A stretch of DNA of 64,000 nt from Deltaproteobacteria bacterium (GCA_016220005.1 JACRIV010000014.1:695-64694); one strand, 5' to 3'. Positions 11,739 to 56,179 are shown, counted from the stretch's first letter. Program-made: numbers and translations. Notes: generated from the letters alone by a model not told the origin.

Positions 11739-11744
11739 GAATAG

Positions 11745-14654
<2,910 letters not shown>

Positions 14655-14770: not shown

Positions 14771-14778
14771 GCGCACGC

Positions 14779-14856
14779 GTCCCCATCGTCTAGTCCGGCC
14801 AAGGACACCGCCCTTTCACGGCGGCGACGGGGGTTCAAATCCCCCTGGGGACGCCA
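14779..14856 (+). tRNA. tRNA-Glu (anticodon TTC)
   Basis: Acceptor GTCCCCA/TGGGGAC. Anticodon loop CTTTCAC. T-arm GGGGGTTCAAATCCCCC. Encoded CCA. Confidence 0.85.
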
Positions 14857-17217: not shown

Positions 17218-17251
17218 ACGCTTTGCGAAAGGGATCACGGGAAAGACGGGA

Positions 17252-17283
17252 AAGGGCGGGAACCCCCCGCCCTTTCGTATTTA
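17252..17283 (+). terminator. rho-independent terminator
   Basis: AGGGCGGG-aacc-CCCGCCCT hairpin followed by TTCGTATTT. Confidence 0.6.
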
Positions 17284-17350
17284 GATTGACTACCTGTCCT
17301 CCAATATAGTATACAGTATACGTTTATCCATCATTCGAAGGTGAATCCCC

Positions 17351-35580: not shown

Positions 35581-36165
35581 ATGACGGGTGGGGGGGCCAG
35601 AAAGGGAATGCCGTGCGGGGCGGCGGTGATTGCCATGGCCGCCGCCTTGGCGCTGACGGCCGGCCTGATGGGGCCGCCCCGGGCGTGCGCCACCTCCCCC
35701 GAGAAGGACGGCAAGATGGTGGGGAAGGCTTCACCGCGGTTCACGGCCGTTGATCTTGACGGCAAGACGAGAAGTTTCGAAGAGGTGAAGAACGGTTCGC
35801 ACGCCGTGGTGGTCAACTTCTGGGGGTTGCGCTGCTCGGCCTGCATCCAGGAGATGCCTTACCTGGACGACATTTACAGGAAATTCGCCAAGGAAGGCCT
35901 GTTCGTCTTCGGGGTGAACGTGGACGGGATGGACAGGGACGCCATCCGGAAGAAGATGAAACAGATGAGTCTCGCCCCCAGCTACTGCATCGTCGAGGAC
36001 CCGGATATGAAGCTCGCGGACCTTTTCAACATGAGGGCCGCCCCCCTGACCTACGTCATCGATGCAAAGGGCATCATACGGTTCCAGCACGAAGGGTTCG
36101 AGGAAGGCGACGAGAAGGAGCTGGAGAAGGCGGTCGACTCCGTCCTCCGCGGCAAGGCGGATTGA
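35581..36165 (+). CDS. TlpA family thiol-disulfide oxidoreductase (CSAC)
   Basis: Signal/anchor peptide. AVVVNFWGLRCSACIQEMPYL. Start chosen at the ATG at 35581 (ORF track 35545). Confidence 0.75.
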   Translation: MTGGGARKGMPCGAAVIAMAAALALTAGLMGPPRACATSPEKDGKMVGKASPRFTAVDLDGKTRSFEEVKNGSHAVVVNFWGLRCSACIQEMPYLDDIYRKFAKEGLFVFGVNVDGMDRDAIRKKMKQMSLAPSYCIVEDPDMKLADLFNMRAAPLTYVIDAKGIIRFQHEGFEEGDEKELEKAVDSVLRGKAD

Positions 36166-36202
36166 GGGAAGAGTACGGCTTCCTTTTGCAGGAGAGCGGG
36201 AC

Positions 36203-37357: not shown

Positions 37358-37359
37358 CC

Positions 37360-37935
37360 ATGACCAACGGGGGCGCGGTGATGAGGGGTGCGTCGCAGCT
37401 GTTCGTGCTTTTCCTTCTGATCGGTATGGTTCCGACGGGAACTCTCCCTGCGTTCGCGCAGGACACGGCGATGCGGCTGAAGATCGGCGAGAAGGCGCCC
37501 GACTTCAAGCTGAAGGACGTGATGACGGGCAAGGTGGTCAGCCTTCACGAGTTCACGGGCAAGAAGGTGGTGATGCTCGAGTTCTGGGCCACCTGGTGCG
37601 ACATCTGCAAGCGGGAGATGCCCAACCTCGTCAAGCTCCACACCGGGTGGAAAGACAGGGGCTTCGAGCTCCTCTCGATCGTCCTCCCCTCCGGCAACGT
37701 CGACGACATCCGCAAGATCGTGAAGGATAAAAGGATCACCTACGCCGTCCTCCTGGACGCCGACCTTTCCGTGGCGACGAAATCCTTCGGGCTTGCCGGC
37801 CCCATCCCGCTGAAGGTGGTCATCGACCACAAGGGCGTCATCCGCTACACGCACGTGGGCGACTATCCCCCGGGGGAGGATGAGCTGCCCTTCGTCCTCG
37901 AAGACCTCATCAAGGAAATGGGGAAGGGGAAGTGA
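37360..37935 (+). CDS. TlpA family thiol-disulfide oxidoreductase (WCDIC)
   Basis: VVMLEFWATWCDICKREMPNL. Signal peptide. Start chosen at the ATG at 37360, just after the cytochrome stop. Confidence 0.75.
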   Translation: MTNGGAVMRGASQLFVLFLLIGMVPTGTLPAFAQDTAMRLKIGEKAPDFKLKDVMTGKVVSLHEFTGKKVVMLEFWATWCDICKREMPNLVKLHTGWKDRGFELLSIVLPSGNVDDIRKIVKDKRITYAVLLDADLSVATKSFGLAGPIPLKVVIDHKGVIRYTHVGDYPPGEDELPFVLEDLIKEMGKGK

Positions 37936-38471
37936 GCCGCTGCGCCGTGCGCGTGACACCCTTCCGTCGGCGGGGGGTGGCCCTTCTTCTCTCCCTCTGC
38001 TTCCTGGGCATCGCCGCGACCGCCCTTCCCGCGGACAAGACCGTCGAGGTGGGGCATGCGGTCCCGGACTTCTCCCTGTCCGGCCTGGAGGGGCCGAAGG
38101 TGTCTTTCAGGAAGGACATCCTGGGCAAGGCGCCCCTCACCCTCCTGTTCTTCATGACCACCGCGTGCAGCGCGTGCTACGAGGAGCTCCAGGAGATCAA
38201 CGAGTTCGTCGGGGAAAACCCCGGCAAGGTCGACGTCTGGTGCATCGCGGTGGACCTGCGGGGGGCGCAGACCGTGGGTCCGTTCCGGCAGGCGAACAAG
38301 TTCCGGGTGAAGTACCTGATCGACCCGAAGTTCTCTCTCCCCAGGACATTTGGTTTCAACTATACCCCGTCCCTCGCCTTTGTCGATTCGAAGGGCGTGC
38401 TGCTTCACAAGAAGGGCGGCTACACGCCCAATGAACGCCTCTCCGACCTGATCCGGACGTTCCTCAAGTAA
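37932..38471 (+). CDS. thioredoxin-like protein (CSAC)
   Basis: GTG start overlapping the upstream stop (GTGA). LTLLFFMTTACSACYEEL. Signal peptide. Confidence 0.65.
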   Translation: MSRCAVRVTPFRRRGVALLLSLCFLGIAATALPADKTVEVGHAVPDFSLSGLEGPKVSFRKDILGKAPLTLLFFMTTACSACYEELQEINEFVGENPGKVDVWCIAVDLRGAQTVGPFRQANKFRVKYLIDPKFSLPRTFGFNYTPSLAFVDSKGVLLHKKGGYTPNERLSDLIRTFLK

Positions 38472-38480
38472 AGGATCTCG

Positions 38481-39674
38481 ATGCCTGCCTGGAAAAGGGT
38501 TTACCTGCTTGTCGCAATCGGCCTGCTCCTCCCGCCGGGCGCGTGGGGGTTCGGCCCCGGCGCGAAGGGATACGCGGGCTCCGAGAAGTGCCGGAAGTGC
38601 CACGAGGAGATCTACATCCAGTGGAAGCGGACCCCGCACGCCAACATGCTTCGGGACGCGAAGAAGAACCCGGACGCAATGGCGGCGAAGGATTTCTCCG
38701 GCGTTCCCTTCAAGAAAGAGGACGTCTGGTGGACGATCGGGAGCCACTGGATCCAGAAGTACCTGACTTTCATCGACAATGACTACTATGTTCTCCCGAA
38801 GTACTGGAACCTCGTCAACAACGACTGGGAGCCGTACTCGATCTTCAATTGGAGGGAGCGGCCCTACACGATCTACTGCGACGGGTGCCATACTACCGGG
38901 TTCGATCCCGAGACGAAGTCGTTCCACGAACCGTCCATCGGCTGCGAGGCGTGTCACGGCCCCGGCGAGAAGCACGCCGCGACCGGCGCGGCGGCGGACA
39001 TCGTGAACCCCGAGAAGCTCTCGAAGGAGCGGTGGGACATGGTGTGCGAGGCGTGCCACACGGACGGGAAGGACACGAAGGCCGGCGGCCAGTTCCCATT
39101 CCCCGCGCGTTACCGGCCCGGGGAGGACCTCACGAAATATTTCACCGATTTCTTCGCTCCCAAGCCCAAGTCGAAGAAATGGTACTGGGGGACGATGGAC
39201 TACAAGGAACGGCACCGGATGTTCCTGTTCTGGCAGTCCAAGTTCTATTCGACCGCGCGCGCGTGCGACGTGTGCGGATTCGATCGGGGGATCACGGTCA
39301 AGGATGAGCGATACATGAGCCGGGACGAGTATTGCGGCACGTGCCACGGGAAGATCTACAAGTTCGCCTCGGTCCACTCGCACCACGATTCGAGGACGGT
39401 CCGCTGCATCGACTGCCACACGCCGCAGGGGACCTCCGGGGGGCAGCGGTACAGCATCCACGACCACAAGTTCGACTTCTCGGGGCCGGAGCTTCCGTGC
39501 GTCGAGTGCCACGAGGAGAAGGATATCCGAGGGAAAAAGGCGGAAAACCACGACTTCCACTTTTCCCGTGTCAAGACGCCTGGAAGCCTGACCCTGGAGC
39601 AGGCGTGCGCCAGGTGCCATCCGGACAAGGGGATCCCCGAGATCCTGAAGGACTGGAAGCCCGGAGCGAAGTAG
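38481..39674 (+). CDS. octahaem cytochrome c, paralogue of 36203-37357
   Basis: Signal peptide. Eight CxxCH motifs plus one CxxCG. Begins EKCRKCHEEIYIQWKRTPH. Colinear with its paralogue. Confidence 0.8.
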   Translation: MPAWKRVYLLVAIGLLLPPGAWGFGPGAKGYAGSEKCRKCHEEIYIQWKRTPHANMLRDAKKNPDAMAAKDFSGVPFKKEDVWWTIGSHWIQKYLTFIDNDYYVLPKYWNLVNNDWEPYSIFNWRERPYTIYCDGCHTTGFDPETKSFHEPSIGCEACHGPGEKHAATGAAADIVNPEKLSKERWDMVCEACHTDGKDTKAGGQFPFPARYRPGEDLTKYFTDFFAPKPKSKKWYWGTMDYKERHRMFLFWQSKFYSTARACDVCGFDRGITVKDERYMSRDEYCGTCHGKIYKFASVHSHHDSRTVRCIDCHTPQGTSGGQRYSIHDHKFDFSGPELPCVECHEEKDIRGKKAENHDFHFSRVKTPGSLTLEQACARCHPDKGIPEILKDWKPGAK

Positions 39675-39677
39675 CCC

Positions 39678-41585
39678 ATGGCTCTTTCCGCCGCAGAGAC
39701 CTTCGGCAATCTCGCGAAGAACAGCCGCCTGCAGAACGCGCTGATCGCCCTGTTCTTCCTGGGCATCTCGGCCCTGTTTTTCAACAAGATCTTCACCAGC
39801 GACTATGGCATTCACCTGTCCATCGGCAAGCACTTCATCGAAACCGGCAAGGTTCCCGACAAGGAATTCATGAACTACCCGCTTCTGAATCAACCAATGA
39901 ACTACGAGGAACTCGGTTTCCAGGCCATTCTCTACACGGTCTATCGCGTGGTGGGATCGGACGGCGTCTCCGTGTTCGTCTGGCTGATGGCCACGCTCTC
40001 CTTTTTCTTCATCTACAAATCGCTGCGGGCAAGGGACATCAACCCCTATATCGCCCTGTTCACCATGCTGATTTTCGCGATGCCGTTCCGGATTCGCCTG
40101 CAGCCCAGGCCGGAGATCATCGCCTACTTCTTCACCTCGTACCTGATCTACGGATGTTCGCTTTTCTACTACAAGGGAAACCGGAAAATCCTCTACACGT
40201 TCCCGCTGGTTTTCCTGTTGTGGGCCAACATCCACCCCTCGACGCTGGCCGGGATCGGGGCTGTGGGCGCATTCGGGACGCAAAGCCTCGTGGTGATCTA
40301 CCGGGACAAATTCGCCAAGGCTTCCCTGAAAAACAACCTGTTCGTCCCGCTGGGGATTTTCGTTCTCTGCGTTCTCGCCACGTTCCTGAGCAAGCACGGG
40401 GTTGAAAGCGTGTTGACCCCCGTGAGGCTAATGGTCAACCCCAACCAAATGACCGGTATCTCGGAGATGACCTCCGTGAAGAATTCCGGCTTTTACGAAT
40501 TCTATAAATACATTCTCGCGGTAAGCGTGGTGTTCGGAGCGCTTGGCCTCATTGCCTGGAAATTGAAGATCCACGACATCATCATGGCCGTGTACGGCTT
40601 GAAGCTGCCCCTTCAGGTGGCCCGCGGCATGGCGTTCATGTCGGTCTTCGCCATTCCGATGGTCGCGCAGTCCTTCGACGGGTTCCTGCGGCGGATCCGG
40701 ACCTACCTGAGCCGGCGCGAGGAGGCTTCGCTCAAGGCCGGGATGAAGGCGGTGAAGGAGAAGGAGCCTTCCCGGAAGAAACAGGGGAAAAAGGTACATC
40801 CGGCCGCAGAGCAGAAACCGACCCCCGCCTCGCCTGCGCCTCTGCCCGCCCTCCGGTATTTCCGGCTGCCGATCGTCCTTGCCTGGCTGGTCTTCCTCGG
40901 GGCGACGGGCTACGGGGCCTACTACATCCGCGTGGGCACGGCGGACATCGTCGAGAACGGGATCGGCCTGACGGAGCACAAGTTCTCGCTGAAGTCCGGC
41001 GAGTTCCTGAGGAATCTTGACATCAAGGGGAACATGTTCAACTTCTTCGACCTGGGGGGGTTCGTGGAGTGGCAGGTCTACCCCCGGAAATTGACCTTCA
41101 TCGACGGTCGGGCAGGCAACCCCACGTTGTTCATGGAGCACCAGGCGATCACGTCGGGCATGGGGGACATGGAAAGCACGTTCCGGAAGTACAACATCAC
41201 CTATGTCATCACAAAGACGGTCGACTCCGCGGGGATGGTGCTGCCCCTGATCAATTACCTCGCGATGAGCCCGAGCTGGGAGCTCGTGTTCGCCGACGGG
41301 CTTGCGGTCGTTTTCGTGAAAAACATACCGGAGAACCGGGCGATTATCGACAGGTACAAGATCTCCAAGAATGTCCTCGGCGCCCAGATCGTCAGCGAGA
41401 TGTTGCATTCCACCTACCTGGGGATCAACAGGTTCTTCGTTTATTACACGATCGGGAACATCTACATGAACAGCGGCGATTATGGAAACGCCCGGAAGTT
41501 CTTCGAATTGGCGCGTTCCATCCACGACGACCCGAATTTGGCGGCCCTCGTCAGCCGGCTGGACGGCATGCAAAGAATGCGCTGA
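39678..41585 (+). CDS. GT-C fold membrane glycosyltransferase (PMT/ArnT-like) with a C-terminal periplasmic TPR-like domain
   Basis: About 11 N-terminal TM helices, a KQGKK linker, further TM helices and a soluble C-terminus with a TPR-like motif (NIYMNSGDYGNARKFFELA). Lower GC than the cytochrome island. Confidence 0.5.
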   Translation: MALSAAETFGNLAKNSRLQNALIALFFLGISALFFNKIFTSDYGIHLSIGKHFIETGKVPDKEFMNYPLLNQPMNYEELGFQAILYTVYRVVGSDGVSVFVWLMATLSFFFIYKSLRARDINPYIALFTMLIFAMPFRIRLQPRPEIIAYFFTSYLIYGCSLFYYKGNRKILYTFPLVFLLWANIHPSTLAGIGAVGAFGTQSLVVIYRDKFAKASLKNNLFVPLGIFVLCVLATFLSKHGVESVLTPVRLMVNPNQMTGISEMTSVKNSGFYEFYKYILAVSVVFGALGLIAWKLKIHDIIMAVYGLKLPLQVARGMAFMSVFAIPMVAQSFDGFLRRIRTYLSRREEASLKAGMKAVKEKEPSRKKQGKKVHPAAEQKPTPASPAPLPALRYFRLPIVLAWLVFLGATGYGAYYIRVGTADIVENGIGLTEHKFSLKSGEFLRNLDIKGNMFNFFDLGGFVEWQVYPRKLTFIDGRAGNPTLFMEHQAITSGMGDMESTFRKYNITYVITKTVDSAGMVLPLINYLAMSPSWELVFADGLAVVFVKNIPENRAIIDRYKISKNVLGAQIVSEMLHSTYLGINRFFVYYTIGNIYMNSGDYGNARKFFELARSIHDDPNLAALVSRLDGMQRMR

Positions 41586-42655: not shown

Positions 42656-43570
42656 ATGCCAGGAAACGGCGGAAGACGCGTCATCGGGCCGGCGAAGGAA
42701 AATATTTGCGCGGTCGTCGTCACCTTCAACCCCGACCCCGGTTTTCCGGAGCGCATGGCAGGGATTGCAGGACAGGTGAGCAGGATCGTGGTCGTGGACA
42801 ATTGCTCGGCCCCGCGGGCCAGGGACATGCTGAATGCCACCTGTGTTCGGCCCGATGTCGACCTGATCCTCAATGACGAAAATCTCGGCGTGGCGGCAGC
42901 CTTGAACCAGGGTGTGCGCCGCGCCGGGGAAAGGTCCCTCCGATGGGTCCTCGCCCTGGACCAGGATTCCACGGCGGAGGGATTCCTCGTGGAGACGCTC
43001 ATCGATGCTTTCAACCACTATCCGGGGAAAGAGAGGATCGCCGTCATCGGGTCGAACTACTTCGATGAAAAGAGGGGGAAGCGATTCATCAAGAACGATC
43101 GTGCCGATCCTCCTTGGATCGAGCAGACGACGGCCATCACATCCGGGAGCCTGCTCTCGATCTCGGCGTTCGAACGCTTCGGTCCTTTCCGTGAGGATTT
43201 CTTCATCGACCACGTCGACGACGAATACTGTCTGAGGGCGCTTTCGAAAGGGTTCAAGGTGATCCTGTGCCGCCGGCCCGTGATCCGGCATCCCATCGGG
43301 GCGGCGATGGCAATACCCCTGTTCGGGAAGCCGGTCTGGACTTCCGGCCATTCCGGGATCCGGCGTTATTACATGATCCGGAATTTCGTCGTTTTGGCCC
43401 GGGAATACCTCTTCACACGGCCGGGATGGATCCTTTCGCGTGCTTACCGGCACGCCGCCTTTGCGGTTTTGGCGCTGCTGTTGGAACCCAGCAGGGGGGA
43501 AAAGCTGCGGATGATGGTGAGGGGGATGCGTGACGGGCTTGCCGGGAGGATGGGCAGGCTCCCCGCCTGA
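42656..43570 (+). CDS. family 2 glycosyltransferase
   Basis: ICAVVVTFNPD...VVVDNCS...ALDQD and DHVDDEYCLRA motifs. ATG at 42656. Confidence 0.75.
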   Translation: MPGNGGRRVIGPAKENICAVVVTFNPDPGFPERMAGIAGQVSRIVVVDNCSAPRARDMLNATCVRPDVDLILNDENLGVAAALNQGVRRAGERSLRWVLALDQDSTAEGFLVETLIDAFNHYPGKERIAVIGSNYFDEKRGKRFIKNDRADPPWIEQTTAITSGSLLSISAFERFGPFREDFFIDHVDDEYCLRALSKGFKVILCRRPVIRHPIGAAMAIPLFGKPVWTSGHSGIRRYYMIRNFVVLAREYLFTRPGWILSRAYRHAAFAVLALLLEPSRGEKLRMMVRGMRDGLAGRMGRLPA

Positions 43571-43581: not shown

Positions 43582-44457
43582 TCAGACGTGGTGGCGCCGC
43601 GCGGTCACCTTGGCCTGAAGCGTCGAGAAGGCAAACCGTGCGAGGTGGCTTCTCCGGAGGAGCTCCATGCCGCCTCGGCGTATGACCTTGAGCAGGGATT
43701 TGCGCACAGCCGACATCCGGACGTAATCCTTGTCGATGTATTCGTTGAAGATCCTCCAGCCGTCGCCGAAAAACGCAGGGTCTTTAATGTACTCCCAGGT
43801 CAACTGGCCCTCGTGCCGCCGGAACTTCGAAAGCGGCTCGGGGAGGAAGACGAAATCCCCCTGTTCCAGGAGATGGAACCACATCTCCAGGTCGATGAGC
43901 TGCTTGTACGTCGTTGTGAAGCCCCGCTCCGCGTGGATTTTCCGGAACAGCACGGAAGTCGGCTCGCCGATGAGGTTTCCCTTCAAAAGACATCTCTTGA
44001 TCACGTTGAATCCGTTGTCTTCGACGAAGCGGTCGGAATAGGAGAGCACCTTCAGGGGGCGAAGGCTGTCGTTCACCAACATCCTTGCCGAGCCCGCGAG
44101 GCTTGCGCGGGGATGGGATTCCATCGCCGACACGAGCTTCTCGAGGCACGCCGGCTCAAGGAGGTCGTCGGCGCAAAGGATCTTGATGTAGTCCCCGGCG
44201 GCGTATTTCAAGCACAGGTTGAAGTTGCCGGTCTGGCCGACGTTCCTTTCGTTCCGGTAGTACCTGATCTTTGCGCCGGAGTCGATGTACTTCCGAACGA
44301 TATCGGGCGTCTTGTCGGTGGAGCAGTTGTCCACGACGACCAGTTCGTAGTCGGGGAAGGTCTGCGCAAGCACCGAACCGACGGCGTCCGGCAGGTAGTG
44401 CGCGTAGTTGTAAGTCGGTATGCAGACGCTGACTTTGGGGGGATTGTGATCGACCAT
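43582..44457 (-). CDS. family 2 glycosyltransferase
   Basis: VSVCIPTYNYAHYL...VVVDNCSTDKT...CADD motifs. Start chosen at the internal ATG (MVDHNPPKVS). Confidence 0.75.
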   Translation of the reverse strand: MVDHNPPKVSVCIPTYNYAHYLPDAVGSVLAQTFPDYELVVVDNCSTDKTPDIVRKYIDSGAKIRYYRNERNVGQTGNFNLCLKYAAGDYIKILCADDLLEPACLEKLVSAMESHPRASLAGSARMLVNDSLRPLKVLSYSDRFVEDNGFNVIKRCLLKGNLIGEPTSVLFRKIHAERGFTTTYKQLIDLEMWFHLLEQGDFVFLPEPLSKFRRHEGQLTWEYIKDPAFFGDGWRIFNEYIDKDYVRMSAVRKSLLKVIRRGGMELLRRSHLARFAFSTLQAKVTARRHHV

Positions 44458-44546: not shown

Positions 44547-45572
44547 ATGCGGCAGGAGACGGATGGCCGATTGGGGGTGAACGGGCAACGCGTCTCCGTC
44601 GCCATGTGCACTTACAACGGTGGCGCTTTTTTGCGTGAGCAACTCGACAGTATTGCTTCGCAGACACGGCTCCCGGACGAGACGGTGGTATTCGACGACA
44701 GGTCTTCGGACGCGGACGCTACCGTGGAGATACTGAAAGATTTTGCCGCCAAGGCTCCTTTCCCCGTCCGGGTCACGGTAAACACGCAGAACATCGGCTC
44801 CACGAAAAATTTCGAGCAGGCGATACGAGCCTGTACCGGCGGCATCATCGTTCTTTCCGACCAGGACGATGTCTGGCTTCCGGACAAGCTGGCGCGTATC
44901 GAAGCGGTTTTCTCTTCCTCTCCAAGGATTGGCGTAGTGTTCACCGATGGGGAGGTCGTGGATGATGCCCTTCGCCCTTTGGGCTACCGACTCTGGCAGG
45001 CCTTCGGGTTCACGCGAAAGATGCAGCGGCGGCTGTCGACGGGGGAGGCCACGGAGGTGCTGCTCAAGTATAACGTGGTCACCGGTGCGACGATGGCGTT
45101 CCGGTCCGAATATGTCCCCCTCGTGGTTCCCTTTCCGGAAAGCTGCGTGCACGACTGGTGGATCGCACTCCTGGTTTCCTTCATCGCCGACCTTGCGATG
45201 ATCCCGGAACCTCTCATCAAATACCGCCAGCACTCCGCGAACCAGATCGGGGGAATAAAGCTCGACTGGTCAGGGAAAGTCGGAAGGGCGCGCGGCGTCG
45301 GAGAGGATGTCCTCCGGGAAGTTGCCGACGGATACCGGGCGGCCTACGACAGGCTTTGCTCTCGTGCGTCATCCCTTAAGAGGGAAGAATTGCTGTCCCG
45401 GCTTGCCGAGAAGGTCCGTCACTTCGAGGCCCGCAGCGGACTGCCGGACACGGTATTCGGGCGGTTGCCGGTGACCATCAAGGAATTGGTTTCGCTTCGG
45501 TACCACAGGTATTCTCTGGGCACGAAGAGCTTTTTCAAGGACTTGTTTCTGCACCCGGCCGGCCCGCGATAG
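44547..45572 (+). CDS. family 2 glycosyltransferase (WbbL-type rhamnosyltransferase-like)
   Basis: VSVAMCTYNGGAFL...VVFDDRSSD...SDQDD motifs. RBS GGGGAGG. Confidence 0.75.
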   Translation: MRQETDGRLGVNGQRVSVAMCTYNGGAFLREQLDSIASQTRLPDETVVFDDRSSDADATVEILKDFAAKAPFPVRVTVNTQNIGSTKNFEQAIRACTGGIIVLSDQDDVWLPDKLARIEAVFSSSPRIGVVFTDGEVVDDALRPLGYRLWQAFGFTRKMQRRLSTGEATEVLLKYNVVTGATMAFRSEYVPLVVPFPESCVHDWWIALLVSFIADLAMIPEPLIKYRQHSANQIGGIKLDWSGKVGRARGVGEDVLREVADGYRAAYDRLCSRASSLKREELLSRLAEKVRHFEARSGLPDTVFGRLPVTIKELVSLRYHRYSLGTKSFFKDLFLHPAGPR

Positions 45573-45725
45573 GTTCACATATGGTAAAAATAGTTTTTAA
45601 ATCATGAAGTCGCAAATGGCACATCCCCCTCGAATCCACATCGCAAATGATATCCTCAAAATGAAAGCGTTATCGGGTTTACGTGTTGTTTTCTCTTTAT
45701 GTCGTAGTTCCTTGAGTAGCTTGGG

Positions 45726-46739
45726 TCAATGCTTTTTAAAAACAGATGTGTATGTTCCTCCCCATCCTTCAAGCCGCTGTAAATTTTTAATCACCAAGTG
45801 AAAAACGGGCATATCGATAATCCTTAACGCCATTCTTGACAAACGGGAAATTTGATTTTTTATTTTATAACTCGCAGCAGTGCGGTGTTTATCCGACGCA
45901 CTATCATGAAAGTCCTCTTCAAGGGATTCCTTCTTTATGAGTGAATACAAATATCTGATTGCATGACTGACGGATAAATCCCACCAATTGTATCTGCTGA
46001 AATTAACGCTTCCTTCGTCCCTTGTTGTTACAAGGGCAGTTTCCAATCCTTGAGATTCGGCGACTTTTGTAAGCACCGCCGGGGGAATAAGTGTTAAATG
46101 GCGGGGAGCGTCCAAATGAGCCCAGAAACGATGAAAAATCTTGAATTGAAGAGATTTTGGATTAGGAGTGGCGATAATAAGTATTCCATCTGGATTCAGT
46201 TTTTCGGATGCGGCCTTAATCACAGCCAAGGGATCGGGTAGGTGCTCTATGACGTGCCAGAGAGCGATCACATCGTATAGGGTTGCCTCGTTTAGTCTTG
46301 AACAGATATCCGTGCTATTTATGACACTTACACCAACCACATCGGACAGAAATTTACAGCAACGTTCATCCATTTCCATCGTATCGACATGAAACCCAGC
46401 CCTTTTCGCGAGAAATGCGAATACTCCGTAGGCCGGCCCGATTTCCAGAAGTTTACCATGGGAGGTGTACGTTAATAGGAGATCAAGCTTATATTTTTCC
46501 TGTTCGGCCTTCTGCGCCAATCCATTTATAGTGGGCAAATCATACGCCGGATAATAATCCGGATAAAAACGACTCATATTTTCCGGGATTGGATGGAGGA
46601 AAATCACTCCGCAACTTTTGCAGATGTAATATTTAAACGATTCATGAGAAAGTCTCAGGTTGAAATCGAACGTATCGAAGTAGTGTGTTCCTTCTTTGTT
46701 GCAAAACGGGCAAGGTCTCCGCATATTAAAAACTCTCAT
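45726..46739 (-). CDS. class I SAM-dependent methyltransferase with an N-terminal zinc ribbon (sugar C-/O-methyltransferase-like)
   Basis: CPFCN...CKSCG zinc ribbon. The SAM motif LLEIGPAYGVFAFLAKRAG and ALWHVIEHLPDP. Sits in AT-rich DNA. Confidence 0.65.
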   Translation of the reverse strand: MRVFNMRRPCPFCNKEGTHYFDTFDFNLRLSHESFKYYICKSCGVIFLHPIPENMSRFYPDYYPAYDLPTINGLAQKAEQEKYKLDLLLTYTSHGKLLEIGPAYGVFAFLAKRAGFHVDTMEMDERCCKFLSDVVGVSVINSTDICSRLNEATLYDVIALWHVIEHLPDPLAVIKAASEKLNPDGILIIATPNPKSLQFKIFHRFWAHLDAPRHLTLIPPAVLTKVAESQGLETALVTTRDEGSVNFSRYNWWDLSVSHAIRYLYSLIKKESLEEDFHDSASDKHRTAASYKIKNQISRLSRMALRIIDMPVFHLVIKNLQRLEGWGGTYTSVFKKH

Positions 46740-46747
46740 TGCTGTTG

Positions 46748-47626
46748 TTATCCTTTTATCGCAGACACGCCCCAAGCCGATGCCGACAAGGCCTGTTTCA
46801 TATTTACATTGCCGTTTGAATATCGTCGCGTCTGATTATCGGCGATCAATAAATTTCCTTGATCTCCCTGCCAGAACGTATTGCTTTTATCCCAATCCTC
46901 TTTTTCGTAGCACGTTCCATCCCTACCGACCACCAGCACTTTTAGATTCCTTCTCAATACCTGTTTCGTCAAACTGTTTTTGCCGCTTTCAAATCTGTGG
47001 ACATCATTTTTTGTGCATATTTTGCTTAGTTTTATGCTCATCATAAGATCTCGCGAGATGACAAATCCATTGGTGCGTATGTGGTAATTCGGGAAGGGGT
47101 CGTATTGTGTTCCATATTTCTTTTCAAGAAATCGCCTGATTATATTCGCATGTAAATTTCTGATGGCAATAGGGACGTGAATTACCCTGCCTGCAATGGG
47201 TATGTTTTCTCGAATGGCAGGCATGCCTAACACATTTGTGTAGTGACTTTCCCACGATCCGGTTGCTCCGGCAACACCGACGAAACTTTGTTGTATGACC
47301 TTATACAACTTTAAGAGCCAATCTTTATCTAATATTATGCTGAATGAGTTTAAAAAGCAAAAATATCGATAGTTATATTTATTCGCAACCTTAAAATATG
47401 GAACCAGATCAAATCCAATGTCTGAGACAACATATTTTTTATGAGGGATATTCCTTAATAATTTGGAATAATCAGAAATACTTTTTTTTGAGTGGAATCC
47501 TTTGAATATGAATAAGAGGTCGTGTTCGACTCCCCCTTTGTATTTTAAGTAAGAATCTATAAACCTCTCGAAGGGAGTTAATCCGTTTTTAGCGCGGACC
47601 AAATGGGAAACGCAGATTTCCGCCAT
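46748..47626 (-). CDS. hypothetical protein (no recognisable family), in the AT-rich glycan island
   Basis: 292-aa ORF in roughly 25-30% GC DNA. Intact ATG. Its context between the methyltransferase and Wzx suggests a glycan-modifying enzyme. Confidence 0.4.
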   Translation of the reverse strand: MAEICVSHLVRAKNGLTPFERFIDSYLKYKGGVEHDLLFIFKGFHSKKSISDYSKLLRNIPHKKYVVSDIGFDLVPYFKVANKYNYRYFCFLNSFSIILDKDWLLKLYKVIQQSFVGVAGATGSWESHYTNVLGMPAIRENIPIAGRVIHVPIAIRNLHANIIRRFLEKKYGTQYDPFPNYHIRTNGFVISRDLMMSIKLSKICTKNDVHRFESGKNSLTKQVLRRNLKVLVVGRDGTCYEKEDWDKSNTFWQGDQGNLLIADNQTRRYSNGNVNMKQALSASAWGVSAIKG

Positions 47627-47657
47627 TCTATAGCAATCCTGAAGACTATATTTACAA

Positions 47658-49175
47658 TTATATTACAGTTAGATATCTGCTAAATTCCTGCTTCAGCCAT
47701 TCGCGTGTATGCGAAAACAGGAGAAAAGAGAATAACAGGGAAAGAGTAAATGTCGAAAACACCCAGAGAGTTGAGGAGGATAGGGAAGCATTGCTTGGGA
47801 AAAGCAATCTGGAGAACAGGACAATCACGAATACGGCGATGAGGGGAGAGCCCACATCGGAAAGATACCATTGCCACATCTGGTCCTTGAAGATCCGTGA
47901 GTGCATGAAAGGGATCTCGATCAGAAAATATCCTGCGTTGAGGAGAATCCATATAATCGCTGCGCCGACCGAGCCGTACGTCGTGACCAAGACGATAAGG
48001 AGCGGCACCAATATGATCACGGCGATCAAGTTCTTGTAAAAAGACAATTTTGTCCAGCCGTATGACAGTTGAAGCGTATAGGGGAGGATCATAATAGAGT
48101 TCAACAAGGTTCCGGTAAGAAGAAGGCTCATCAGCAGATGTGTGTTCCGGACCGTCCCTGGATCGTTGATCCACAATAAAAGGATTTCGCGGGAGTAGAA
48201 TATTGCGGTGATAGCCACCGGAAAGACAACAACCGAGAGAAACTGGCATCCCCTGTGATAAAGCGCGGAAAGTTCCAGTTCCTTCCCCTCCGCCACTAGT
48301 TGCGAGAACTTGGGGAACAATGCCGCGAAAACAGGGTGAACCAGGAGATTCAATGCGTTTGCGACGTTGAAGGCCAGGATGTAATACCCGAACATCTCGA
48401 GACTCAGGAGCTTGCTGAGGACGATTTTGTCCAGCTGGGTGAGGATCGTCGCGACAACCGAAATCCCCGTCATGCCGGCGGCAAATTTCCAATGTTTTTC
48501 CAGAAGGGATTTATTGAAAGAGCTTTTCACACCTGTTTCGGGGAGAGAGGACCATAAGCATGCGCCGAGGAGACATGTCTGAGAAACGCTTACGAGAATT
48601 TGCCACTTGAAGTAGGCTTCGATGGTCGGGGAAATGAGCCACAGGACCAACACCGCCCCGACGGCTTGGACGGTCGCCATTCCGGTCCGGACGACATTAA
48701 ACAGCACTTGACGTTGCAATCCCATAAGGCCGCCCGTGTAAAAAGCGGCCGGCCACTCGAATGCAACCACGATCCCCATGACCTCCAGGGCCTTCTCCAC
48801 GGTGCCTACGCTTATGCCTTTGGTATTCAACCATTTTTGCGCGATTTTGGGTGCGCAGGCGAGGATGCCGATTGCAATGAGGATGCCGATTCCCCAATAG
48901 ATGATCTCCATGGTTCGGACGAGTTCCCGCGATTCCTGTTCATTGCCCGGAACCGCGGAGAGGCGCGCCAACTCCCTGCTGACAGTTGAGCTCAGTCCCA
49001 GGTCCAGGATGGAAAGCAGGCCGATCAGGGAGATATAAACTCCAATAAGCCCATACGATTCAATACCGAGAAACTTGATGTAAAGGGGGACGAAGACAAT
49101 GCTGATGATTGCGGTCCATCCCTTGCCCGCGAAGTTGGCGATGATGTTCCGCCGGATGCTGGGAGGGGAGGTCAT
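47658..49175 (-). CDS. wzx: Wzx-type oligosaccharide flippase (MOP superfamily)
   Basis: 505 aa with about 14 TM helices and the typical polysaccharide-biosynthesis-protein topology. Its start overlaps the stop of the reductase gene (ATGA). Confidence 0.7.
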   Translation of the reverse strand: MTSPPSIRRNIIANFAGKGWTAIISIVFVPLYIKFLGIESYGLIGVYISLIGLLSILDLGLSSTVSRELARLSAVPGNEQESRELVRTMEIIYWGIGILIAIGILACAPKIAQKWLNTKGISVGTVEKALEVMGIVVAFEWPAAFYTGGLMGLQRQVLFNVVRTGMATVQAVGAVLVLWLISPTIEAYFKWQILVSVSQTCLLGACLWSSLPETGVKSSFNKSLLEKHWKFAAGMTGISVVATILTQLDKIVLSKLLSLEMFGYYILAFNVANALNLLVHPVFAALFPKFSQLVAEGKELELSALYHRGCQFLSVVVFPVAITAIFYSREILLLWINDPGTVRNTHLLMSLLLTGTLLNSIMILPYTLQLSYGWTKLSFYKNLIAVIILVPLLIVLVTTYGSVGAAIIWILLNAGYFLIEIPFMHSRIFKDQMWQWYLSDVGSPLIAVFVIVLFSRLLFPSNASLSSSTLWVFSTFTLSLLFSFLLFSHTREWLKQEFSRYLTVI

Positions 49176-51800: not shown

Positions 51801-52919
51801 TCAGGAAATTTGGCCCAACGGGCTGTTCTCGTATTGCCCGATCTGGCGGAGGCAGACTTCCCGAAGGTCCCCTTTCTCCTTGTAGGCCCTCGTCCAGGCG
51901 ACCACCCGGTCGATGGCGTCCTCGAGGTTCCAACGGGGGGACCAGCCCAGCCGGGTTCTTGCCTTGGAGCAATCCAGCTTGAGGAAGTGCGTCTCGTGGG
52001 GATGCTCTCCCTTGTCGACCTCGTAGGAAGCGCCGGGACCCCAAGCCTTGCAGAACCGGCGGACGATCCATTCCACCGGCTGGGCGCCGTGGTCTTCCGG
52101 GCCGAAATTCCATCCCTCGGCGTAGGCCGGCCCGTCCTCGACCAGTCTCTGCGCCAGGGTGAGGTACCCGCTCAACGGCTCCAGCACGTGCTGCCACGGT
52201 CGGACGGCGCGGGGGTTGCGGACCCGGATCTTTTCCTGCTTCAGGATGGCCCGGACGCAGTCCGGGACCAGCCGGTCCTGCGCCCAGTCGCCGCCGCCGA
52301 TGACGTTGCCGGCCCTTGCCGAAGCGACCCCGACGCCGTGGGTTTTGTAGTCACGGGGGTTGAAAAAGGAGCTCCGGTAGGCGGAGGTGACCAGCTCCGA
52401 GCACGCCTTGCTGCTGGAGTAGGGGTCGTACCCGCCGAGCGGCTCGTTTTCCCGGTATCCCATGACCGATTCCCGGTTCTCGTAGCATTTGTCCGTCGTG
52501 ACGTTGACGACGGCCCTCACGCTTGCGCACTTGCGGACGGCTTCGAACAGGTTGACGGTGCCCATGACGTTCGTGGAATACGTTTCCACCGGGTCCCGGT
52601 ACGACTCCCTTACGAGGGGCTGGGCCGCCATGTGAATGACGACGTCCGGCCGGCTGTCCGCCATCGACCTCGATAGCTTGTCGCCGTCCCGGATGTCGGA
52701 AACGACTGACTTCACGAGCGTGTCGACGCCGCACAGCTCGTAGAGGCTCGGTTGTGTCGGCGGTTCCAGCGCATACCCCGTGACTTCCGCTCCCAGGCGG
52801 TGCAACCAGAGGGAGAGCCACGCCCCCTTGAACCCGGTGTGCCCGGTCAGGAAGACCCTCCTGTTCTTCCAGAATCCTTTCAATCCCACACTTTCCACGG
52901 CGCTTTTCCGGCGCGCCAC
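51801..52919 (-). CDS. rfbG: CDP-glucose 4,6-dehydratase
   Basis: FWKNRRVFLTGHTGFKGAWLSLWL, YDPYSSSKAC (YxxxK) and the overall RfbG/DdhB architecture. Probable GTG start. Confidence 0.8.
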   Translation of the reverse strand: MARRKSAVESVGLKGFWKNRRVFLTGHTGFKGAWLSLWLHRLGAEVTGYALEPPTQPSLYELCGVDTLVKSVVSDIRDGDKLSRSMADSRPDVVIHMAAQPLVRESYRDPVETYSTNVMGTVNLFEAVRKCASVRAVVNVTTDKCYENRESVMGYRENEPLGGYDPYSSSKACSELVTSAYRSSFFNPRDYKTHGVGVASARAGNVIGGGDWAQDRLVPDCVRAILKQEKIRVRNPRAVRPWQHVLEPLSGYLTLAQRLVEDGPAYAEGWNFGPEDHGAQPVEWIVRRFCKAWGPGASYEVDKGEHPHETHFLKLDCSKARTRLGWSPRWNLEDAIDRVVAWTRAYKEKGDLREVCLRQIGQYENSPLGQIS

Positions 52920-53656
52920 GACGCCTCGAGCTGGTTCTTGTCCCGCATCGTGTCCATCGGCTGCCAGAAGCCGCGGTGCCTGTAGGCGACGAGCTCCCCG
53001 TTCTTCGCCAGGTGCTCAAGCGGCTCATTCTCGAAGACGGTATTGTCGCCTTCGAGGTAGTCGAAGATTCCGGGCTCGAGGACGAAGAAGCCGGCGTTGA
53101 TCCATCCCCCGTCGCCCTTCGGCTTCTCCCGGAACCCCAGGACCCGGTCGTTCTCCCCCAGGTCCAGCGCTCCGAACCGGCCGCCCGGCTGTGCGGCGCT
53201 GATCGTTGCCAGCCTGCCGTGGGACCGGTGATAGGACACAAGGTCCTTGATGTTGATGTCCGACACGCCGTCTCCGTAGGTGAGCATGAACGGCCGGTTG
53301 TCCGTGTATTGCCGGATCCTCTTGACCCTGCCGCCCGTCATGGTGTCGTTACCGGTGTTCACCAGGGTAACTTTCCATGGCTCGGCGGTGTGGGTATGGA
53401 TCTCCCGCTCGGTCGGCTTCCGGAAGTCGAAGGTGACGTCGGACTCGTGCAGGAAGTAGTGCGCGAAATATTCCTTGATGACGTATCCCTTATACCCGAG
53501 GCAGATGATGAAATCGTCGAACCCGTAATGCGAGTACAGCTTCATGATGTGCCAGAGGATCGGCTTCTCCACGATCTCGATCATCGGCTTCGGCTTGAGA
53601 TGCGATTCCTCGCTGATCCTGGTGCCGAACCCTCCGGCCAGAATGACCACCTTCAT
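52880..53656 (-). CDS. rfbF: glucose-1-phosphate cytidylyltransferase
   Basis: MKVVILAGGFGTRISEESHLKPKPM and the RfbF/DdhA-type C-terminus ...RGFWQPMDTMRDKNQLEASW. Confidence 0.85.
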   Translation of the reverse strand: MKVVILAGGFGTRISEESHLKPKPMIEIVEKPILWHIMKLYSHYGFDDFIICLGYKGYVIKEYFAHYFLHESDVTFDFRKPTEREIHTHTAEPWKVTLVNTGNDTMTGGRVKRIRQYTDNRPFMLTYGDGVSDINIKDLVSYHRSHGRLATISAAQPGGRFGALDLGENDRVLGFREKPKGDGGWINAGFFVLEPGIFDYLEGDNTVFENEPLEHLAKNGELVAYRHRGFWQPMDTMRDKNQLEASWRAGKAPWKVWD

Positions 53657-54000
53657 TTCGGATCGCCCTCCTTCACCTCTTCCTTCAGCAGCGCCAGCTC
53701 CTGGGCCATCCTCTTGTTCATCTGGTGGAGCTTCGAGATCGCGATCGAAAAGTGGATCAGGATGAGCATGATGAAGAGGATGCCGACGAGGAACAAAAGG
53801 GAGGGGGGGTAGGCGATCCCGACGATGCGCGACAGGCGGATCAGCCAATCCTGCTTCACCGACAGGACGAGGATCACCATGCTCCCGCAGAGCCACAGGA
53901 TCGAGTACTCCTCCCGGAGGCGGCGCCGCCGGACCATCTCGAGAATGTAGACGAGGAGGGCGGCGGACATGCACACCGAGAGAAGGGTCACCCTGCTCAA
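53653..54000 (-). CDS. DUF2304 family small membrane protein (partner of a polyprenol-phosphate glycosyltransferase)
   Basis: 115 aa, 3-4 TM helices. ATGA/TTGA overlaps with both neighbours. Typically found paired with a DPM1-like GT2. Confidence 0.5.
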   Translation of the reverse strand: MSRVTLLSVCMSAALLVYILEMVRRRRLREEYSILWLCGSMVILVLSVKQDWLIRLSRIVGIAYPPSLLFLVGILFIMLILIHFSIAISKLHQMNKRMAQELALLKEEVKEGDPK

Positions 54001-54704
54001 CCGAATCTCCTAATGGCGTTAATGAGGAAAGAGAGCGTCACCTTAACCATATAATATATCGCCCCGAACGTCGTTATGGAGGATTTTCCCTCGACGCGGG
54101 CGTACATCCGGACCGGGACCTCCGCCGTTCCGGCCCCGAGGCGGTGCATCAGGATGTAGGCGTCCACCTCCGGGTAGTCGGAAGGGTAGTGGCGCGAATA
54201 GAACTCGATCAGCCGGCGGTTGATGGCGAAGAAGCCGGACGTGGGGTCGGTCACGCGGTAACCGGTGAAGAGGTTCACCAGGGACCGGAAGAACCGGATG
54301 CCGAAGATGCGGGGGATCGACCCGCGGTATCCCGCCTCCCCAAGGAACCTGGAGCCGATCGCCGCATCGGCCTTGCCCGCCAAGATGGGCTCGAGCACCC
54401 GGGGGATGTCCTCGATCTCGTGCTGCCCGTCGCCGTCGATCCGTACGAGCGCCTCGTAGCCCCGGTCGCGGGCGAACAGGAACGCCGTCTGTGCGGCGCC
54501 GCCGATGCCCAGGTTGCAGGGAAGGTCCAGTACGGTGGCCCCGGCCGACCTTGCCGCGGCAGAGGTCGCGTCCGTAGACCCGTCGTTGACCACGAGGACG
54601 TCGTAGGGGAATCTCCGCCTGAGGGCGGAGACGATCTGCCCGATCGTCTGCTCCTCCTGGAACGCGGGGATGGCGATCAGGACGCGATGCGGGGGTCTGT
54701 CCAT
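53997..54704 (-). CDS. polyprenol-phosphate sugar synthase, GT2 (DPM1/GtrB/ArnC-like)
   Basis: VLIAIPAFQEE...VLVVNDGSTD...DGDGQH motifs, 235 aa. Start at the internal ATG (ORF track 54893). Confidence 0.75.
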   Translation of the reverse strand: MDRPPHRVLIAIPAFQEEQTIGQIVSALRRRFPYDVLVVNDGSTDATSAAARSAGATVLDLPCNLGIGGAAQTAFLFARDRGYEALVRIDGDGQHEIEDIPRVLEPILAGKADAAIGSRFLGEAGYRGSIPRIFGIRFFRSLVNLFTGYRVTDPTSGFFAINRRLIEFYSRHYPSDYPEVDAYILMHRLGAGTAEVPVRMYARVEGKSSITTFGAIYYMVKVTLSFLINAIRRFG

Positions 54705-54738
54705 CTCTCGAAGGGTCCCGGGGATCGCCCGGGGCCTC

Positions 54739-55317
54739 CTACTGCACGACCTTTTCGATCTCCTTCTTGAGCTGGGGAGGCGCCACGGTGCCGACCGCAG
54801 AGAACGCGACAACCCCTTTCTTGTCGATGAGGAAGAGAGCGGGAGTCCCCGCGACCCCGTAAGGGTCTGCGACCATGAAGGAGTCTCCCACAAGCTCGTC
54901 GAACACGATCCGGAACGCGATTTTCTCGTTCACGACGAACTTGTCGATCGCCTTTTTCAACTCCTTGCCGTCGAGGTTCACGCCGACGACGTGGAGCCCC
55001 TTCCCGTAATATTGCTTCGTCATATCGTTGATCAGCGGGATCTCCTCCCGGCACGGGCCGCAGAAGAACGACCAGAAGAAAAGCAGGACCGCCTCCTTGC
55101 CGCCGCGGTCCTTGAGGCGGAACTCCTTGTCGGCGAGATCCCTGACCGCGAAGTCGGGCGCCGTGCTGCCGACCTTCAGGGTCTCTATCCCCTTGACCGT
55201 CGGGATCTTGGTGTAGGAACTTCCCTTGCTCTCCTGCGCCGCCGACCACCCGCTGGAAACAGCGACGGTTACGGCAACGGTGATCGCGACGATAGAAACG
55301 GCCATCCCGCTTTTCAT
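54739..55317 (-). CDS. TlpA-like periplasmic thioredoxin (CGPC)
   Basis: Signal peptide. AVLLFFWSFFCGPCREEIPLI. The 474-aa ORF-track entry is a frame extension over the next gene. Confidence 0.75.
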   Translation of the reverse strand: MKSGMAVSIVAITVAVTVAVSSGWSAAQESKGSSYTKIPTVKGIETLKVGSTAPDFAVRDLADKEFRLKDRGGKEAVLLFFWSFFCGPCREEIPLINDMTKQYYGKGLHVVGVNLDGKELKKAIDKFVVNEKIAFRIVFDELVGDSFMVADPYGVAGTPALFLIDKKGVVAFSAVGTVAPPQLKKEIEKVVQ

Positions 55318-55328
55318 GGCGCCCTCGC

Positions 55329-55874
55329 TCACTTCCTGATTTCCTTCACGGCCTGTGTGACGACGTCGCGCAGGTGCTTCTCGTCGCCCTGCTTGTAGCC
55401 CACGTGGTAGAACCGGATCTTCCCGTTGACGTCGATGAGGAGCGTCGTCGGCAGGACCATCGCGTTGAAGGAGGTGGCGACCTGCCGGTTCTTGTCGATG
55501 ATCACCGGGAAATTGATCTTGGTCTCCATCCCCTGCATGAACTTCACGACGCGATGGGTGCCGAACGAGTCGAGGTTGACGCCGACGACGACGAGCCCCT
55601 TGTCCTTGAACTCGTTGAAGATATCGATCAGCTTCGGCATTTCCTCGATGCAGGATGCGCAGTAGATCGACCAGAAGTCGAGGATGACGACCTTTTTCCC
55701 CTTCAGCTTGGAGTACTCGATCGGCTGGTTTTCGATCGTGTGGCCGTTGAACATCGGCGCCGCGTCGCCTTCCTTGATCCCCCCGCCCCCTCCAAAAAAC
55801 GCCCCCGCCGGCCGTGCGATCGCCAGGATCGCCAGCGCGGCAAACACGAAACGGATCGGGGATCTGCGATTCAT
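55329..55874 (-). CDS. TlpA-like periplasmic thioredoxin (CASC)
   Basis: Signal peptide. VVILDFWSIYCASCIEEMPKL. Confidence 0.75.
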   Translation of the reverse strand: MNRRSPIRFVFAALAILAIARPAGAFFGGGGGIKEGDAAPMFNGHTIENQPIEYSKLKGKKVVILDFWSIYCASCIEEMPKLIDIFNEFKDKGLVVVGVNLDSFGTHRVVKFMQGMETKINFPVIIDKNRQVATSFNAMVLPTTLLIDVNGKIRFYHVGYKQGDEKHLRDVVTQAVKEIRK

Positions 55875-56179
55875 TTCGGGACATCCTCCGAGAGTAATTT
55901 TTCAACTTATACCACAGGCTTCTCGTAAAACGAAACAGGAAACGTCCGGCTTCGCAAGGCAGGACGGTCCGCTTGACGAATTCTTTACGACCGCTGTAAC
56001 ATATCGGCGAAACGCGGGTATTCTTTGGTGGATGGATACGGTTTCTCCAAAACCTCCAGGAGGTCTTCGATGAAGAAGATCCGCTTCGCGGCTCCCAAGG
56101 TGGTCGGCTCTTCCAGCGTTCACCCCTGCTGACCGGTTGCCGGGCAGAAATCGCCAACCCCATTTATCCTCCCCGGGAG

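Follow-up and report, generated by a model that had tools for sequence, protein, structure and literature searches.

A low-GC segment with genes for a methyltransferase, a putative transferase and a flippase at the 3' end of a predicted CDP-3-C-methyl-6-deoxyhexose operon in a deltaproteobacterium, with a candidate GT-A-fold glycosyltransferase family

The O-antigen (rfb) gene clusters of Salmonella combine the ddhA and ddhB (rfbF and rfbG) genes of cytidine diphosphate (CDP)-3,6-dideoxyhexose pathways with wzx and genes for glycosyltransferases. For 3-C-methylated CDP-6-deoxyhexoses, vinelose of Azotobacter vinelandii is the sole representative known to us; it is also 2-O-methylated, CDP-vinelose being CDP-6-deoxy-3-C-methyl-2-O-methyl-L-talose. 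Among transferases of the GT-A fold, the GT14 core-2 GlcNAc-transferase C2GnT-L, a eukaryotic, Golgi-resident enzyme, is metal-independent and lacks the DxD motif, with basic side chains in place of the metal. Here, we analysed a stretch of 64,000 nucleotides (the window) from an uncultured member of the Deltaproteobacteria (GCA_016220005.1, JACRIV010000014.1:695-64694), in which an AT-rich segment with genes for a methyltransferase (MT23), a 292-aa protein (X) and a Wzx-type flippase lies within a surface-glycan locus.

In our reading, to which we give a probability of roughly 0.55, a conserved operon serves the synthesis and attachment of a rare branched deoxysugar, and the AT-rich stretch is its variable end, concerned with glycan assembly; X is the transferase of this sugar, and X and MT23 were exchanged later. 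As in enterobacterial rfb clusters, an rfbF-rfbG start is followed by Wzx and transferases, the transferase/flippase genes are of lower GC, and relatives differ in a cassette-like manner. Unlike in rfb clusters, the predicted pathway proceeds to 3-C-methylation by a TcaB9-type enzyme and to RmlC/RmlD steps instead of 3-deoxygenation, and the host is a cytochrome-rich deltaproteobacterium of ~64% GC. A further difference is that no Wzy, chain-length regulator (Wzz) or initiating phosphoglycosyltransferase (WbaP/WecA type) was recognised among the locus genes (39.7-54.9 kb), so that unassigned proteins or genes outside the locus must supply them. The resemblance to vinelose lies in the 3-C-methylated, O-methylated CDP-6-deoxy-L-hexose expected from RfbF, RfbG, a 3-C-methyltransferase, RmlC-like and RmlD-like enzymes and an extra methyltransferase, the configuration and methylation site of the sugar being predicted from the genes alone.

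Base composition was profiled in 300-bp, 1-kb and 2-kb windows and by maximum-likelihood segmentation of 40-55 kb, and the GC content at third codon positions (GC3) was compared with that of 33 non-locus genes of the window (mean 0.866, standard deviation 0.034). Gene coordinates were taken from a GC3-aware call of open reading frames (ORFs) and from external gene calls of a contig of identical sequence (L004). The compositional anomaly is real, far beyond chance and two-tiered, consisting of a two-gene core and an intermediate flippase gene. At the 2-kb scale the strongest dip of the window (GC 0.408) starts at 45701, against a mean of 0.623 over all 2-kb windows and a lowest value of 0.575 for those starting outside 42-50 kb; at the 1-kb scale GC stays at 0.57-0.69 throughout, except at 45-49 kb. 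Segmentation placed change points at 45570, 47770 and 49110, separating segments with GC contents of 0.594, 0.406, 0.519 and 0.618, with a log-likelihood gain of 148.

The left edge, at which the 300-bp profile falls from ~0.59 to 0.42 in one or two steps at ~45.55 kb, coincides with the stop codon of a convergent gene of glycosyltransferase family 2 (GT2; 45572), just where the first-pass annotation had seen a sharp break (about 45.58 kb). Its second sharp break, at about 49.2 kb, proved to be a ramp, GC rising from 0.44 to 0.60 over 47.7-49.3 kb through the flippase gene. Deviation from the genomic norm, which sliding-window GC and codon usage had been expected to reveal, was significant for MT23 (GC3 0.426, z-score -12.8), X (0.430, z -12.7) and the flippase (0.662, z -5.9), compared with 0.74-0.87 (z -3.7 to +0.2) for the remaining locus genes and 0.80 for the pathway genes. 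The description as an AT-rich three-gene insert with A/T3-rich codon usage thus holds for MT23 and X; the flippase is intermediate and still G/C3-biased, only more weakly than its neighbours. The stated 25-45% GC overstates the depth of the dip, as the profile reaches its minimum of 0.34 at 47.2-47.6 kb with no 300-bp window below 33.7%, and the flippase half has 48-57%. The surroundings, put at 65%, measure ~0.64 in non-locus genes and ~0.59-0.60 in the glycan locus. Along the flippase gene, GC3 falls from 0.78 to 0.38 in 40-codon bins; a recombination junction within this gene was considered and rejected, since the bins drop gradually and with noise, without a clean internal step.

The low-GC genes and the flippase gene form the 3' end of one continuous minus-strand gene run with overlaps or short gaps (Table 1), and on this contiguity the run from the pathway genes to MT23 is one operon. 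What had been taken for an independent cassette in the genome is therefore the end of an operon with genes for a CDP-linked 3-C-methyl-6-deoxyhexose, which travel together in many phyla, and the placement in a surface-glycan locus is supported. Scans for promoters and terminators gave counts no higher than in shuffled sequence. The five upstream genes are shown by their family matches to encode RfbF, RfbG, a TcaB9/MtmC-type 3-C-methyltransferase, an epimerase of the RmlC and a reductase of the RmlD kind: RfbF, RfbG, the epimerase and the reductase score above NCBIfam cut-offs, and the C-methyltransferase matches MtmC (4rv9, 5e-110), KijD1 and TcaB9 among PDB sequences with E-values from 5e-110 to 1e-84. 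In deoxysugar biochemistry, such an enzyme set leads from glucose-1-phosphate to CDP-6-deoxy-3-C-methyl-L-hexose, and a product of this vinelose type is expected here from the gene content. In the literature searched, nothing on vinelose was found, and C-methyl sugars were represented only by virenose of Coxiella, by sugars of antibiotics and by a list of Sinorhizobium genes.

Protein X, called an orphan in the first-pass annotation, belongs to a large family: 921 proteins, almost all of 275-300 aa and ~50% identical, match at E<=1e-3 in a 90%-clustered collection, a search with the family profile yields 2191 clusters at the 50% level, with E<=1e-30 for 1120, and 362 of 185,579 species-representative genomes encode a member. 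Carriers include Nitrospirota, Desulfobacterota, Acidobacteriota, Beta- and Gammaproteobacteria, Verrucomicrobiota, Planctomycetota, Chloroflexota, Actinomycetota, Spirochaetota and a metagenome-assembled genome (MAG) of Prochlorococcus. Besides the NCBI MAG record, the searches recovered the exact protein from a single further contig (run SRR12113407). No match to Pfam or NCBIfam was obtained at E<=0.1, none to the PDB by sequence (phmmer) or by family profile, and the profile showed no relationship to a GT2 of the window (hhalign probability 0.8%). The family shares the motifs HLVR..NG..P, KGF, D.G.D...Y, FLNS.S, GATGS, PFPNYH.RTN.F, FESGK and NLL.ADNQT.

An AlphaFold2 model of X built from 35 sequences (predicted local distance difference test score, pLDDT, 92.1; predicted template modelling score, pTM, 0.89) consists of a single Rossmann-like alpha/beta/alpha domain with GT-A strand order, and by this model X is a protein of GT-A fold. 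Foldseek matched it to B3GalT5/6, PcManGT, HAS, RmlT, TarP and WrtF with probability 1.0, at template modelling scores (TM-scores) of only 0.4-0.5. Compared with GT2-type GT-A enzymes (the comparators were SpsA 1h7l, TarP 6h1j, RmlT 8bz4, PcManGT 6yv7, K4CP 2z86 and WrtF 9omh, along with the GT31 enzymes B3GalT5/6), X shows no detectable sequence relationship (identity 7-15%, TM-score 0.4-0.5), and its likely donor is a CDP-sugar and not a UDP-, dTDP- or GDP-sugar. At the DxD position, which by secondary-structure order follows the fourth strand (88-92), X has N93-S94-x-S96; among 129 diverse cluster representatives N93 is present in 128, S94 in 125 and S96 in 123, and an acidic residue never occurs there. 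About 26 positions are at least 95% conserved in these representatives, including the acidic D73, E213 and D263 and the basic R184 and K206, and K42, H35 and H182 are conserved at 90-95%. E213 belongs to the FESGK and D263 to the NLLxADNQT motif, both placed relative to the active site by secondary-structure order only. With its GT-A fold, missing DxD and conserved basic residues (R184, K206, K42, H35, H182), X is like C2GnT-L, although its metal independence is only predicted; the searches gave no sequence or specific structural match between the two.

The genomic context links the X family to the sugar pathway. When 78 loci were fetched from species genomes and their ORFs searched with the window proteins (E<1e-10), 46 loci from diverse phyla had at least 6 kb on both sides of X, and within 10 kb of X these contained genes for the RmlC-like epimerase (42/46), the C-methyltransferase (41/46), RfbG (38/46), RfbF (35/46), a GT2 like GT2b of the window (34/46), MT23 (23/46), the RmlD-type reductase (20/46; elsewhere replaced by other short-chain dehydrogenase/reductase, SDR, enzymes) and a Wzx of the window's type (13/46). 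The nearest pathway gene lies on the same strand as X in 58 of 64 loci and upstream of it in 52. Three X homologues on long contigs likewise share as neighbours a nucleotidyltransferase, a dehydratase, a Methyltransf_13/14 C-methyltransferase, a dTDP_sugar_isom protein, an SDR reductase, a flippase, a Methyltransf_23 protein and a GT2. In the 43 full loci, genes like GT2b are present in 31, GT2a in 5, the WbbL-like GT2 in 3, the upstream GT2 in one and the 635-aa membrane protein of the window in none. Apart from GT2b, the glycosyltransferases of the window thus do not belong to the conserved gene set, and the WbbL-like GT2 was rejected as the module's conserved transferase.

Pathway genes also occur on their own. 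A tblastn search of 72,556 plasmids gave no match to X, although 169 of them carry a homologue of the C-methyltransferase; a Desulfolutivibrio plasmid has rfbF-rfbG-rmlC, the C-methyltransferase, an acyltransferase and an SDR gene, and pSymB of S. meliloti has rfbG and the C-methyltransferase, both without X (ddhA, ddhB and the C-methyltransferase are listed for S. meliloti in PMC4053727). X is therefore dispensable for making the sugar, but where X occurs the pathway is almost always found beside it, and the pattern is that expected of a donor-specific transferase. Fusions of X recur in independent lineages, with a GT2 in L032, P0153, P0172, P0226, P0244, P0259 (1038 aa) and P0138, and with Methyltransf_23 in L036, L064, P0127, P0169, P0204 and P0238, and Geobacter pickeringii G13 encodes two X paralogues in one locus (41% and 45% identity). 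Such paralogues and fusions are typical of transferases, and together with the fold and the context they support the earlier suggestion of a novel glycosyltransferase. Genes for B12-binding radical S-adenosylmethionine (SAM) proteins with SPASM domains adjoin X or the flippase in L083 (6010-8598) and L002 (6534-7958), and may add further sugar methylation or epimerisation chemistry in these variants of the module.

Family matches agree with the methyltransferase, Wzx flippase, flanking GT2 and reductase identities assigned earlier. MT23 has a SAM-binding Rossmann domain and, at its N-terminus, a putative four-cysteine zinc ribbon; among 32 homologues, its C35 and C38 never vary, and conservation is at least 90% for C5 and C8. 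Structurally it is nearest to the nucleoside diphosphate (NDP)-sugar methyltransferase TcaB9, which aligns over 235 residues, beyond the Rossmann domain alone, at only 17% identity. In contrast to TcaB9, MtmC and KijD1, no match to the C-terminal sugar-binding domain Methyltransf_14 (PF08484) was obtained in MT23, whose C-terminal 90 residues are helical in the model. We infer that MT23 methylates the CDP-sugar while it is still nucleotide-linked, probably on oxygen. Such a step would agree with a CDP-sugar that is O-methylated, as vinelose is, and the X-MT23 fusions would then couple producer and consumer of one CDP-sugar. The flippase also matches PF13440 (59 bits), with the specific NCBIfam equivalogs remaining below cut-off; eight hydrophobic blocks span the protein, giving it a polytopic membrane topology, and it shares 56% identity with its counterparts in L005 and L007.

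In the sequence of events we propose, the upstream enzymes would convert glucose-1-phosphate into CDP-6-deoxy-3-C-methyl-L-hexose, MT23 would add a further methyl group to the CDP-linked sugar, and X, on the inner side of the membrane, would transfer the sugar from this donor to an acceptor carried on a lipid, after which the Wzx flippase would export the lipid-linked unit. Because N-S-x-S replaces DxD throughout the family, X would probably work without a DxD-bound metal; the conserved basic residues may balance the charge of the diphosphate, with E213 or D263 as a candidate base. Beyond this locus, X may found an unnamed family of DxD-less GT-A glycosyltransferases, metal-independent or otherwise unconventional in mechanism, dedicated to CDP-3-C-methyl-6-deoxyhexoses and spread with the pathway as a mobile module over at least 10 phyla, a proposal that we make tentatively and regard as somewhat short of an even chance.

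Several observations weigh against X as the transferase and against later exchange. The DxD (or DxH/ExD) metal-binding motif that X lacks is defining for most GT-A transferases, and both its equivalent and the catalytic base were assigned by secondary-structure order and not by residue-level superposition; the family is named "hypothetical protein" at NCBI, and no paper on it was found in the literature search. The window also encodes a WbbL-like, rhamnosyltransferase-type GT2 as a possible alternative transferase for a 6-deoxy-L-hexose, and the canonical GT2b-like enzyme, present with the module in 31 of the 43 full loci and fused to X in several proteins, could itself transfer the C-methyl sugar. 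X, although of glycosyltransferase fold, would then add another residue or serve as an accessory or scaffold for GT2 and methyltransferase, as would be in line with the missing DxD of some non-catalytic GT-A domains. We consider this unlikely, though the strongest of the functional alternatives: X is tied more tightly to the pathway (41/46) than to GT2b (31/43), several loci have the pathway and X with no GT2b-like gene within 10 kb, and the strong conservation of polar and charged residues, D73, R184, K206, E213 and D263 among them, argues for catalysis over a scaffold. Less probable still is that X transfers nothing to a glycan and instead tailors or salvages the CDP-sugar, the nucleotide-binding GT-A/NTP-transferase fold being reused in, e.g., a nucleotidyl-transfer or exchange enzyme or a mutase. 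That X replaces a missing Wzy polymerase, as had been suggested because no Wzy was seen, is very improbable in spite of the lack of a Wzy family match at 39.7-54.9 kb, since Wzy proteins are polytopic membrane proteins and X is a soluble alpha/beta protein without a hydrophobic segment; the 635-aa multi-span membrane protein is a better candidate for a membrane step.

The remaining alternative concerns the origin of the low GC, which may be long-standing, kept by selection or local mutation bias (e.g., low expression or silencing) and inherited with the pathway. At the borders of the low-GC segment, repeat, tRNA and Rfam scans gave no mobile-element signature and there are no meaningful flanking repeats, no integrase, insertion sequence element or transposase occurs among the locus genes, and the only tRNA genes lie at 14.7 kb; nor is there a close donor, the best relative of X, on a 36% GC contig as predicted of low-GC taxa, being 54% and that of MT23 48% identical. 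X is 43-52% identical to members of its clade, which is within the norm for pathway genes that are 65-75% identical (48 +/- 8.6), and an unusual divergence of X as a signal of xenologous replacement was accordingly rejected. Over 55 related loci, X is on average slightly below the C-methyltransferase in GC (-0.033, minimum -0.188) and GC3 (-0.06, minimum -0.305). The same two tiers recur at the equivalent position in the cultured and fully sequenced G. pickeringii G13 (L086, CP009788.1; module 9001-13500), where at a local GC of ~0.62-0.65 the pathway genes have a GC3 of 0.76-0.80 and X1-MT23-Wzx-GT2 0.42-0.47, a pattern that fits recurrent cassette exchange and leaves room for long-term maintenance of low GC. 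However, the gap in the window matches the most extreme of the 55 loci in GC (-0.19) and exceeds all of them in GC3 (-0.37), and X reaches a GC3 of 0.87-0.94 in hosts with genomes of more than 65% GC (L028, L051, L062); as X tracks host GC in most relatives, low GC is not intrinsic to its family. The left break is, moreover, abrupt and exactly at a gene end. We hold a long-standing low GC to be unlikely but still a serious alternative, about on a par with GT2b as the transferase.

Later exchange of the core is supported by the clade that shares the pathway proteins at 65-74% identity; among its members are G. pickeringii, MAGs of Geobacter, two MAGs of Nitrospirota and a metagenome contig of 36% GC (L083). 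On this contig, the pathway proteins are 70% identical to those of the window and have a GC3 of 0.35, versus 0.80 in the window, so that pathway genes at each host's GC have had time to equilibrate, and X and MT23 in the window have not; most likely, these two were swapped in later. Two types of X occur in the clade, one in the window, L005, L007 and L006 (47-61% identity) and one in L045, L061 and as X1 of G. pickeringii (49-75%), and identity between them is at the background of 40-45%, while the pathway proteins are 65-85% identical. The types of X, flippase and methyltransferase are shuffled within the clade, the flippase of G. pickeringii being unrelated to that of the window (19-24% identity), and the order of X, flippase and MT23 varies between loci; the X of the window shares its nearest neighbours (L005, L007, L083) with its own pathway genes. 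From these sequence comparisons, X and MT23 most likely stem from a carrier of this module with lower GC and entered through recombination inside the operon, and the flippase is inferred to be older or mosaic. The horizontally acquired serotype cassette of the first-pass annotation is thus plausible but not proven: the foreign composition speaks for it, the lack of mobility genes, an adjoining tRNA or flanking repeats does not. Conserved sugar-pathway genes followed by an exchangeable transferase/flippase block of lower GC fit the classical picture of a surface-glycan locus.

Table 1. Features of the glycan locus in the window (positions counted from the first nucleotide of the 64,000-nt stretch) and of related loci (positions in the respective locus).
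Feature	Position	Strand	Evidence or remark
Cytochrome c/redoxin flank	36062-39674	+
635-aa membrane protein with C-terminal tetratricopeptide repeats (TPR)	39678-41585	+	At least five hydrophobic segments; no Pfam/NCBIfam family
WbbL-like rhamnosyltransferase-type GT2	42656-43570	+	TIGR01556, 152 bits (cut-off 200)
GT2b, canonical GT2	43582-44457	-	Relatives accompany X; fused to X in some genomes
GT2 convergent on low-GC segment	44547-45572	+	Pfam GT2, 1e-22; GC3 0.74
Low-GC core segment, GC 0.406	45570-47770		MT23 gene, X gene, 153-bp convergent intergenic spacer, last ~110 nt of flippase gene; segmentation and 300-bp profile
MT23, 332-aa class I SAM methyltransferase	45726-46724	-	Methyltransf_23, 68 bits; called start ATG 46724, longest ORF starts TTG 46775
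X, 292-aa soluble protein of predicted GT-A fold	46748-47626	-	No Pfam/NCBIfam family
Wzx-type MOP-superfamily flippase, 505 aa	47658-49175	-	Polysacc_synt (PF01943), 72.6 bits (cut-off 28.2)
Intermediate segment, GC 0.519	47770-49110		Most of flippase gene; segmentation
RmlD-type 4-ketoreductase, 283 aa	49172-50023	-	TIGR01214, 247.6 bits (cut-off 224); longest ORF to 50425
RmlC-type 3,5-epimerase, 180 aa	50020-50562	-	TIGR01221, 184 bits (cut-off 155.75)
NDP-hexose 3-C-methyltransferase, 411 aa	50559-51794	-	Methyltransf_13 and Methyltransf_14; PDB sequence matches
RfbG, CDP-glucose 4,6-dehydratase	51801-52919	-	TIGR02622, 508 bits (cut-off 278)
RfbF, glucose-1-phosphate cytidylyltransferase	52880-53656	-	TIGR02623, 427 bits (cut-off 300); ORF extends to 53974, family match begins at residue 107
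GT2, head of minus-strand run	53997-54893	-	Pfam GT2; resembles polyprenyl-phosphate sugar synthases
Cytochrome c/redoxin flank	54739-56163	-
Second X paralogue, G. pickeringii G13	17033-17887
X-Methyltransf_23 single ORF, L036	9992-11740		One of two unrelated MAGs
X-Methyltransf_23 single ORF, L064	9902-11770		One of two unrelated MAGs
X-GT2 single ORF, L032	10001-11836		Methylotenera MAG

Among the other genes of the locus, the leading GT2 of the operon is most similar to PpgS, AglJ and a dolichyl-phosphate hexose transferase, all below their NCBIfam cut-offs; together with the 635-aa membrane protein, its sequence hints at a lipid-phosphate-sugar route beside the Wzx route. The membrane protein is a candidate for the missing membrane step, whether polymerase, ligase or GT-C-type transferase; assignment as a YfhO-type enzyme was rejected, since the YfhO-like proteins that terminate related loci do not resemble it. 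On both sides the glycan locus (GC ~0.59) is flanked by genes for multihaem cytochromes c and several AhpC/TSA-type redoxins, and the whole 15-kb locus may have been inserted at an earlier time into an array of cytochrome and redoxin genes. Elsewhere in the window, distant from the low-GC segment, a tandem of tRNA-Lys(UUU) and tRNA-Glu(UUC) at 14695-14856 (+) comprises the only RNA genes detected, and no ORF passing the GC3-aware gene call was found at 13344-14399 and 24110-24585.

A low-GC transferase/flippase segment in a glycan locus is a textbook pattern and ordinary in itself. The X family, by comparison, is large, phylogenetically broad and strongly conserved, and has neither a Pfam or NCBIfam model nor a solved structure; context, fusions and fold together give it a specific predicted role, the transferase step of a CDP-linked 3-C-methyl-6-deoxyhexose pathway. 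The cultured, fully sequenced G. pickeringii G13 offers a tractable experimental carrier. If the prediction is true, X would represent a new family of glycosyltransferases whose active site, lacking DxD, is unusual; over two thousand clusters of proteins could be annotated, and the presence of the family would mark genomes for branched-sugar glycans in Geobacter, Nitrospira, nitrifiers, methanotrophs, Acidobacteriota, Planctomycetota and others. The missing transferase of vinelose-type sugars would then be identified, and such sugars would be far commoner in environmental bacteria than the few chemical reports suggest.

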